Shown here one piece after another: positions 5,739 through 40,091 of a stretch of DNA of 64,000 bases (its first letter is position 1; every line of letters begins with the position of its first letter). This stretch comes from Escherichia coli (GTDB lineage: Bacteria; Pseudomonadota; Gammaproteobacteria; Enterobacterales; Enterobacteriaceae). Under the pieces are notes generated by a model that saw nothing but the letters and a program-made list of their open reading frames with translations, was not told the origin of the DNA and did no database searches. The DNA lies in the NCBI RefSeq assembly GCF_003334405.1, contig NZ_QOWM01000002.1; one strand, 5' to 3'. The translations under genes were made by a program, and so were the position numbers.

Positions 5739-6011
5739 ATGAATATTTATACCTTTGATTTTGATGAGATTGAGAGTCAGGAGGATTTTTATCGTGACTT
5801 TAGCCAAACCTTTGGTCTGGCGAAAGATAAGGTACGCGATCTCGACTCACTATGGGATGTGTTAATGAACGATGTCCTGCCGCTACCACTTGAGATTGAA
5901 TTTGTTCATCTGGGAGAGAAAACGCGTCGCCGTTTTGGCGCGTTAATATTGCTGTTTGATGAGGCAGAGGAAGAGCTGGAAGGGCATTTGCGTTTTAATG
6001 TTCGTCATTAG
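5739..6011 (+). CDS. yhcO: Barstar-like (barnase-inhibitor family) protein YhcO
   Basis: 90 aa [24 protein letters not shown]... Confidence 0.85.
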
Positions 6012-6012
6012 C

Positions 6013-6040
6013 GCAAAAAAAAGCCCCCGAACCGGGGGCA
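6013..6040 (-). terminator. Rho-independent terminator for yhcN (minus strand)
   Basis: Hairpin GCCCCCG-AA-CCGGGGGC with A-run on plus strand, i.e. T-run after the stem on minus strand. Confidence 0.6.
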
Positions 6041-6066
6041 ATATCGTCGGACAAGACGATGAGGGT

Positions 6067-6330
6067 TTATTTGTACAGTTCAGCCGTAGCGTGCCAGGTG
6101 TCACCGCTACGAGCTTCAGTAATCTGGTAGGCCGTTGCGCCTTTCTCTTCCGCTTTTTTGTTCAGCATTTCACGCATATCCATTGGCGAAGACGCCACAC
6201 CACTTACGGATACGGTCCCGATTGCTTCACGATTTTGTGCTTGTGCAGCATCAATGGAGTCGGCAGCGAATGCACCGAAAGAGAGAACAGAAAGTACGCT
6301 TAATGCAGCAACAGTGGTTTTGATTTTCAT
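6067..6330 (-). CDS. yhcN: DUF1471 (YhcN/BhsA family) periplasmic stress protein
   Basis: 87 aa with signal peptide MKIKTTVAALSVLSVLSFGAFA; start moved to internal ATG. Confidence 0.85.
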   Translation of the reverse strand: MKIKTTVAALSVLSVLSFGAFAADSIDAAQAQNREAIGTVSVSGVASSPMDMREMLNKKAEEKGATAYQITEARSGDTWHATAELYK

Positions 6331-6694
6331 GATTTTTACCTCGACATAATCTTTTAGCTGGGCCTTTGTTTCGTGACCCATATCACAAAATCAAGTATAC
6401 ACTAATTATTGAGCTAATTAATACCGCGCTAACTGTTTCAGTTGATACTAAGTGTTAAAAATGTGAATTTTAATAACAAAAAAGAATTAAAAATACGGTT
6501 ATTTATCGTTAATTCTAGTTTTTTCAATTAGATAATGAATTTTGCATAATGTGCTTTTTTTACCTTATGTATTCATTGTGTGAATGACATGTCGCAGTAA
6601 AACGCACTATTCGTTAAATTAATCGCAGGGGAAAGCAGGGGGTTGAGAGGGATAAGCAACATTTTCCCCGCCGTCAGAAACGACGGGGCAGAGA

Positions 6695-7168
<474 letters not shown>

Positions 7169-7191
7169 TCACCCGATATGGTGGTTGATAC

Positions 7192-7227
7192 AACATTATT
7201 GTGCATACAGATGAATTTTTATGCAAA
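7192..7227. promoter_or_regulatory. Two adjacent ARG boxes (ArgR autoregulatory operator) in the argR promoter
   Basis: Minus-strand sequence TTTGCATAAAAATTCATC TGTATGCACAATAATGTT fits the TNTGAAT-W4-ATTCANW ARG-box pattern immediately upstream of argR. Confidence 0.7.
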
Positions 7228-7524
7228 CAGTCAGCCCTGAAGAAGGCTGAAATAATGTTATGAAAGAGCGGGATTTTATCAAATTTCGTTATTGAGAAAC
7301 ATGCCTGCGTCACGGCATGCAAATTCTGCTTAAAAGTAAATTAATTGTTATCAAATTGATGTTGTTTTGGCTGAACGGTAGGGTATATTGTCACCACCTG
7401 TTGGAATGTTGCGCTAATGCATAAGCGACTGTTAATTACGTAAGTTAGGTTCCTGATTACGGCAATTAAATGCATAAACGCTAAACTTGCGTGACTACAC
7501 ATTCTTGAGATGTGGTCATTGTAA

Positions 7525-8538
<1,014 letters not shown>

Positions 8539-39979: not shown

Positions 39980-40091
39980 CCCCGGCTAGACCGGGGTGCG
40001 CGAATACTGCGCCAACACCAGGGAAATCTTGGCTGCGCCGTAAATTATTATGATGAGTTACAAGGGCACAGCACTGTTTTTCAGGCCGCAC
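39971..40091 (-). ncRNA. arcZ: ArcZ (RyhA/SraH) Hfq-dependent sRNA, antisense to the arcB 3' end
   Basis: Minus-strand sequence GTGCGGCCTGAAAAACAGTGCTG...CCCCGGTCTAGCCGGGGTCATTTTTT matches the ArcZ sequence as I recall it and ends in an intrinsic terminator hairpin plus U-run. Confidence 0.85.

Follow-up and report, generated by a model that had tools for sequence, protein, structure and literature searches.

The argR operator in an Escherichia coli chromosomal window: two ARG boxes separated by a 2-bp spacer

The 38-bp element at 7190..7227 of the window (the whole stretch of 64,000 nucleotides that was analyzed) is the already known operator of E. coli argR, and as such belongs to textbook biology. 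It almost certainly acts in the negative autoregulation of argR, a role for which we infer ArgR binding, the promoter overlap with its transcription start, and the extent of repression. Autoregulation by ArgR through tandem ARG boxes had been proposed in a preliminary description of this DNA, and is supported here by an independent matrix, by conservation, by the literature and by identity to K-12. The gene argR is both the regulated gene and the source of the repressor, with the cognate ArgR protein encoded directly next to the operator (Table 1).

The cellular level of ArgR, the master regulator of arginine metabolism, is set by negative autoregulation of argR, which gives the site functional importance. 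The argR operator is catalogued in regulatory databases, and its conservation in Gammaproteobacteria has been shown by comparative genomics. The operator of E. coli K-12 was reportedly described by Lim, Oppenheim, Eckhardt and Maas in 1987, and ARG boxes are said to have been defined in 1992 by Charlier et al. and by Tian et al. Finding the site again validates the scan and brings no new biology. What is gained is a correction of the coordinates to 7190..7227 with a 2-bp spacer, the observation that the proximal box is degenerate in E. coli compared with most relatives, and the clean recovery, by a matrix built independently, of both known ArgR sites in the window.

The window derives from the E. 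coli chromosome. A stretch of 1.1 kb around the site is matched in all 5426 complete E. coli genomes, many of them at 100% identity, with argR annotated in every one and the region annotated as argR and mdh. Within the 70 bp closest to the site, identity is 100% in 5368 of the 5426 genomes. In one complete E. coli genome a plasmid bears a further copy of the argR-mdh region, giving 5427 places in 5426 genomes. The argR-mdh intergenic region (7166..7599, 38% G+C) is base-for-base the same as K-12 MG1655 3384269..3384702 (100% identity), and the operator falls at K-12 coordinates 3384641..3384678, where K-12 = 3384703 + (7165 − window coordinate). Locus, sequence and arrangement, two ARG boxes with a 2-bp spacer, show no difference from the K-12 operator. 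The length of 434 bp previously given for the divergent region shared with mdh is exact, and the placement of the boxes at its argR-proximal end also holds, as they lie 25-62 bp from the argR ATG.

The two ARG boxes and their register

Circularity was avoided by building the matrix from 11 other ArgR-controlled promoter regions of K-12 (argA, argE/CBH, argD, argF, argI, argG, carAB, artJ, artP, hisJ and astC), with argR excluded. Starting from many different seeds, an unseeded palindromic EM motif search of these 11 promoters arrived at AATGAATAATTATTCATT, its box pairs lying 21 bp apart. The resulting matrix comprises 22 boxes from the 11 operators and has an information content of 13.9 bits.

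An ArgR matrix scan, which had been suggested as the means of checking the site, places the pair (22.64 bits) well above chance. The distal box, at 16.69 bits, is the top single ARG box in the 64 kb. Only three sites in the window match the consensus WNTGAATWWWWATTCANW with up to 3 mismatches, and the distal box is among them. The proximal box is a degenerate match. Although its score of 5.95 bits is by itself not separable from chance, it is the sole positive register at the right distance from the distal box. The operator reads ...ctgTTTGCATAAAAATTCATC tg TATGCACAATAATGTTGT atcaaccaccatatcgggtgactt ATG on the argR strand.

The spacing between the box centres settles the extent of the operator. 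At argR the pair scores 22.6 bits with centres 20 bp apart, 7.2 bits at 21 bp and 4.2 bits at 18 bp, and the pair at 7190..7227 is the best at 20-bp spacing anywhere in the 64 kb, where the runner-up reaches 10.7. With this spacing and the proximal register at 7190..7207, the true extent is therefore 7190..7227 (38 bp) and not 7192..7227. The preliminary description, which had seen two adjacent 18-bp palindromes at 7192..7227, was right about the two 18-bp boxes, but the boxes do not abut and the first does not start at 7192. Two other arrangements were tried and rejected. Directly abutting boxes at 7192..7209 and 7210..7227 leave the proximal one at −12.45 bits, with the best pair at 18-bp spacing reaching only 4.2, and with the canonical 3-bp spacer (21-bp spacing) the pair drops to 7.2 bits, from 22.6 at 20 bp. 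Two boxes with a 2-bp spacer at 7190..7227 are consistent with the "2 or 3 bp" described between the two 18-bp boxes of hexamer-bound ArgR operators (PMC4381063). In the rest of the 434-bp intergenic region, the matrix scan found no further ARG box above an out-of-phase register at 7200 (6.6 bits).

The sequence match is confirmed as real and far better than chance. Among 20,000 first-order Markov sequences, each 434 bp long and matched to the intergenic composition, 19 held a pair of at least 22.64 bits at a spacing of 20 or 21; the same threshold was reached in 1 of 300 simulated 64-kb windows whose composition followed that of the window. Only one pair in the window scores higher than that of argR, at 36482..36520 (26.1 bits). 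The two best pairs of the matrix are thus the argR and gltBDF sites, so that both loci in the window with known ArgR binding were recovered.

Two lone ARG-like boxes were also seen, at 30823..30840 (15.5 bits) and 27022..27039 (13.3 bits). One lies in a 472-aa ORF adjoining gltB (probably gltD) and the other in a 738-aa ORF, in an AT-rich stretch. Both are probably chance matches, because neither has a partner box.

Table 1. Features of the argR-mdh region, and the gltBDF ArgR site, in window coordinates.
Feature	Coordinates	Strand	Sequence	Basis and remarks
argR CDS (156 aa + stop)	6695..7165	-		NCBIfam NF003457 'transcriptional regulator ArgR' (equivalog), 289.8 bits vs cutoff 194
Proximal ARG box	7190..7207	-	TATGCACAATAATGTTGT (argR strand)	degenerate match; 5.95 bits; neighbouring registers strongly negative
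Putative -10 hexamer	7198..7203	-	CACAAT (CATAAT in most relatives)	sequence and alignment; inside proximal box
Inter-box spacer, 2 bp	7208..7209	-	TG (argR strand)	pair score peak at 20-bp centre spacing
Distal ARG box (promoter -35 side)	7210..7227	-	TTTGCATAAAAATTCATC (argR strand)	2 mismatches to consensus; 16.69 bits
Putative -35 hexamer of the operator-overlapped argR promoter	7221..7226	-	TTGCAT	read from sequence; inside distal box
Upstream promoter-like site, candidate second argR promoter	7255..7282	-	TTGATA-16-TAACAT	only sigma-70-type scan match in 7100..7650
mdh, malate dehydrogenase	7600..8538	+		TIGR01772, 466 bits
gltBDF ArgR site	36482..36520	+	TATGCATGAAATTTCGGT aat TTTGATTGATTATGCAGT	best pair in window; intergenic, gltB (31483..36051, -) / yhcC (36585..37547, +)

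Conservation across relatives and competing readings

An ArgR protein scan of species-representative genomes yielded 79 loci across Gammaproteobacteria. Of the 26 Enterobacterales, 23 have a box of at least 15 bits in the 150 bp upstream of argR, as do 19 of the 53 other Gammaproteobacteria, and control windows (850–1000 bp upstream, and inside coding sequence) contain no box of that strength. In Enterobacterales the best pair almost always has the form TTTGCATAAAAATTCAT(C/T) nn TATGCATAATAATGTT.., with a 2-bp spacer and an end ~25 nt before the ATG; both the spacer length and this distance are kept in most members of the order. The divergent arrangement of mdh and argR is itself retained in 70 of the 79 gammaproteobacterial loci, as judged from an AAGGIGQ motif, typical of Mdh, encoded on the opposite strand within the 1.5 kb upstream of each argR.

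Upstream of argR, strong conservation across Enterobacterales is confined to the ARG boxes. When 24 Enterobacterales are aligned over positions −165..+3, 20 columns are invariant. The 38-bp operator accounts for 16 of them, 12 in the distal box, and the other four consist of a single upstream T, two Gs in the ribosome-binding site and the A with which the start codon begins. Relative to E. coli, mean identity is 0.91 in the distal box and 0.77 in the proximal box, compared with 0.35 in the inter-box spacer, whose bases vary freely among relatives, and 0.5–0.6 in the flanks. Conservation within the proximal box is higher in the left half, TATGCA(C/T)AAT (0.84), than in the right (0.70).

In the proximal box most relatives carry TATGCATAATAATGTTGT, which scores 12.4 bits, as against ~6.0 in E. 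coli. Window position 7201 is C (CACAAT) in E. coli, E. albertii and two Citrobacter species, and T (CATAAT) in most Enterobacterales. Replacement of T by C lowers the score of the proximal ARG box from 12.4 to 6.0 bits and at the same time weakens the putative -10 hexamer.

Part of the conservation of the boxes could reflect promoter function instead of ArgR binding, because in both boxes the conserved bases overlie the putative -35 and -10 hexamers. A rival reading holds that the conserved block is a plain sigma-70 promoter of argR (-35 TTGCAT, -10 CA(C/T)AAT) whose likeness to ARG boxes is incidental and on which ArgR does not act. The invariant bases do include the TTG of the -35 and the CATAAT-like -10, and the proximal box attains only 5.95 bits. 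However, the distal box is conserved as a whole, including AAAAATTCA in the promoter spacer, where sigma-70 promoters lack sequence constraint, and it ranks first among the ARG boxes of the 64 kb by a matrix built without argR. Strong ARG boxes also recur upstream of argR in distant Gammaproteobacteria, within different surrounding sequence, and ArgR autoregulation is stated in the literature (PMC7248756; PMC5343134). Taken together, we regard a promoter free of ArgR control as very improbable.

Even less credence is due to the two other readings that were weighed. A functionless product of chance in an AT-rich intergenic region might be suspected at 38% G+C, a composition at which 37 of 200 simulated 64-kb runs contained a pair of at least 22.6, and lone boxes of 13-15 bits do occur inside coding sequence elsewhere in the window. 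Yet the probability for the actual 434 bp is ~0.001, position, spacing and sequence are conserved across Enterobacterales while flanks and spacer diverge, and control windows contain no such boxes. Chance is effectively refuted by the conservation data, and statistics and conservation together exclude it, so that its remaining probability is negligible. Similarly, it is scarcely conceivable that the boxes serve the divergent mdh, or both genes, and not argR alone. The region is shared, the divergence of mdh and argR is kept in 70 of 79 loci, and at gltBDF ArgR acts from >300 bp upstream (PMC1784095). Nonetheless, the mdh ATG is 373-410 bp away from the boxes as against 25-62 bp for that of argR, in relatives the boxes track the argR start at ~25 nt whatever the intergenic length, and mdh was not found as an ArgR target in the literature searched. 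The preferred reading remains that of an operator of argR.

Putative promoters and the proposed course of repression

The literature places argR under its own product: ArgR is described as controlling "its own synthesis" (PMC7248756), and argR is counted among the conserved core members of the ArgR regulon in Gammaproteobacteria (PMC5343134). In the family at large, arginine-loaded hexameric ArgR binds two ARG boxes that usually overlap a promoter (PMC6640053; PMC4381063). At the operator described here, the hexamer loaded with L-arginine would bind both boxes cooperatively and on one face of the DNA, the box centres being 20 bp, or about two helical turns, apart owing to the 2-bp spacer. The distal box would hold the -35 (TTGCAT) and the proximal box the -10 (CACAAT) of the proximal argR promoter. 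Because the boxes contain both putative hexamers, bound repressor would exclude RNA polymerase, and argR transcription would fall when arginine is plentiful.

The TTG of the putative -35 is invariant in the 24 Enterobacterales. The σ70-like TTGCAT-17-CACAAT inside the two boxes lies below the threshold of the consensus promoter scan, and so went uncalled there. Its 17-bp spacing predicts a transcription start near 7189..7191 and a leader of ~25 nt. The upstream promoter-like site TTGATA-16-TAACAT is conserved within Enterobacteriaceae. Lim et al. reportedly described a second argR promoter in 1987, and we take 7282..7255 to be a candidate for it, independent of the operator and with a predicted start near 7248. 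This site, ~50 bp upstream, probably supplies basal, less repressible transcription. The promoter and terminator scan of the argR-mdh region detected no terminator, and an Rfam scan of 6000..8000 at E <= 1 returned only meaningless snoRNA-like matches and no known RNA element.

Two further elements of the intergenic region may be mentioned. A hairpin, UCAGCCUU-cuuc-AGGGCUGA, at 7232..7249 on the minus strand (ΔG -10.7 kcal/mol, z -3.15) is flanked by the upstream promoter-like site and the ARG boxes; any transcript from the upstream promoter would begin with it. Enterobacteriaceae retain its GCC...GGC stem with a loop that varies. Midway through the argR-mdh intergenic region, a palindrome, CATGCC-N8-GGCATG, occupies 7303..7322. 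Its motif CGTGAnnCAGGCATGT is conserved in Enterobacteriaceae, while the left arm is altered in E. albertii, and this combination points to binding by a protein more than to an RNA hairpin.

A more speculative view, which we consider doubtful, is that the design of the operator, with its 2-bp spacer, its boxes doubling as -35 and -10 hexamers and the change at 7201, amounts to a tuned, lineage-specific set-point for ArgR, and that the hairpin at 7232..7249 may also shape transcripts from the upstream promoter. If true, autoregulation would be looser and promoter strength lower in Escherichia and Citrobacter than in their relatives.

Relation to other ArgR operators

Like argR, the biosynthetic operators (argF, argI, argECBH, argA, argD, argG and carAB P2) consist of two 18-bp imperfect palindromes matching wNTGAATwwwwATTCANw; theirs overlap a promoter and are bound by hexameric, arginine-loaded ArgR, as is predicted for argR. 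They differ from argR in the length of the spacer, which is 3 bp: the pair score of each of the 11 reference operators is highest at a centre spacing of 21 bp, as opposed to 20 bp at argR. Their pair scores are also mostly higher. When scored by leave-one-out, the reference operators span 12.2 to 38.0 (median 28.5), and the argR pair, at 22.6, falls inside this range at its weak end. The argR operator is thus comparatively weak among ArgR operators, and what sets it apart from the biosynthetic ones is the 2-bp spacer and the degenerate proximal box.

The ArgR site of gltBDF provides a second comparison within the window. The same matrix finds it as an ARG-box pair, but unlike argR it has a 3-bp spacer and lies >300 bp upstream of the promoter. 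Its DNase I footprint by ArgR far upstream is established, and ArgR is thought to disturb a complex of Lrp, IHF and RNA polymerase there rather than to occlude the promoter (Paul et al., 2007, PMC1784095).

In a full-text literature search the sequence of the proximal box had no match, and that of the distal box was found only in a paper on decoy engineering (PMC7826281). The synthetic "consensus" ArgR decoy of that work, TTATTTGCATAAAAATTCATT, is a few bases off the natural distal argR box, and the primers used to clone it carry the native flanks of the argR operator, TGTATGCACA and CAGTCAGCCCC (PMC7826281). Elsewhere in the window, two RNA elements match Rfam at the gathering threshold, namely the ArcZ sRNA at 39984..40091 on the minus strand (120.8 bits) and the greA leader at 61736..61857 on the plus strand (127.5 bits).
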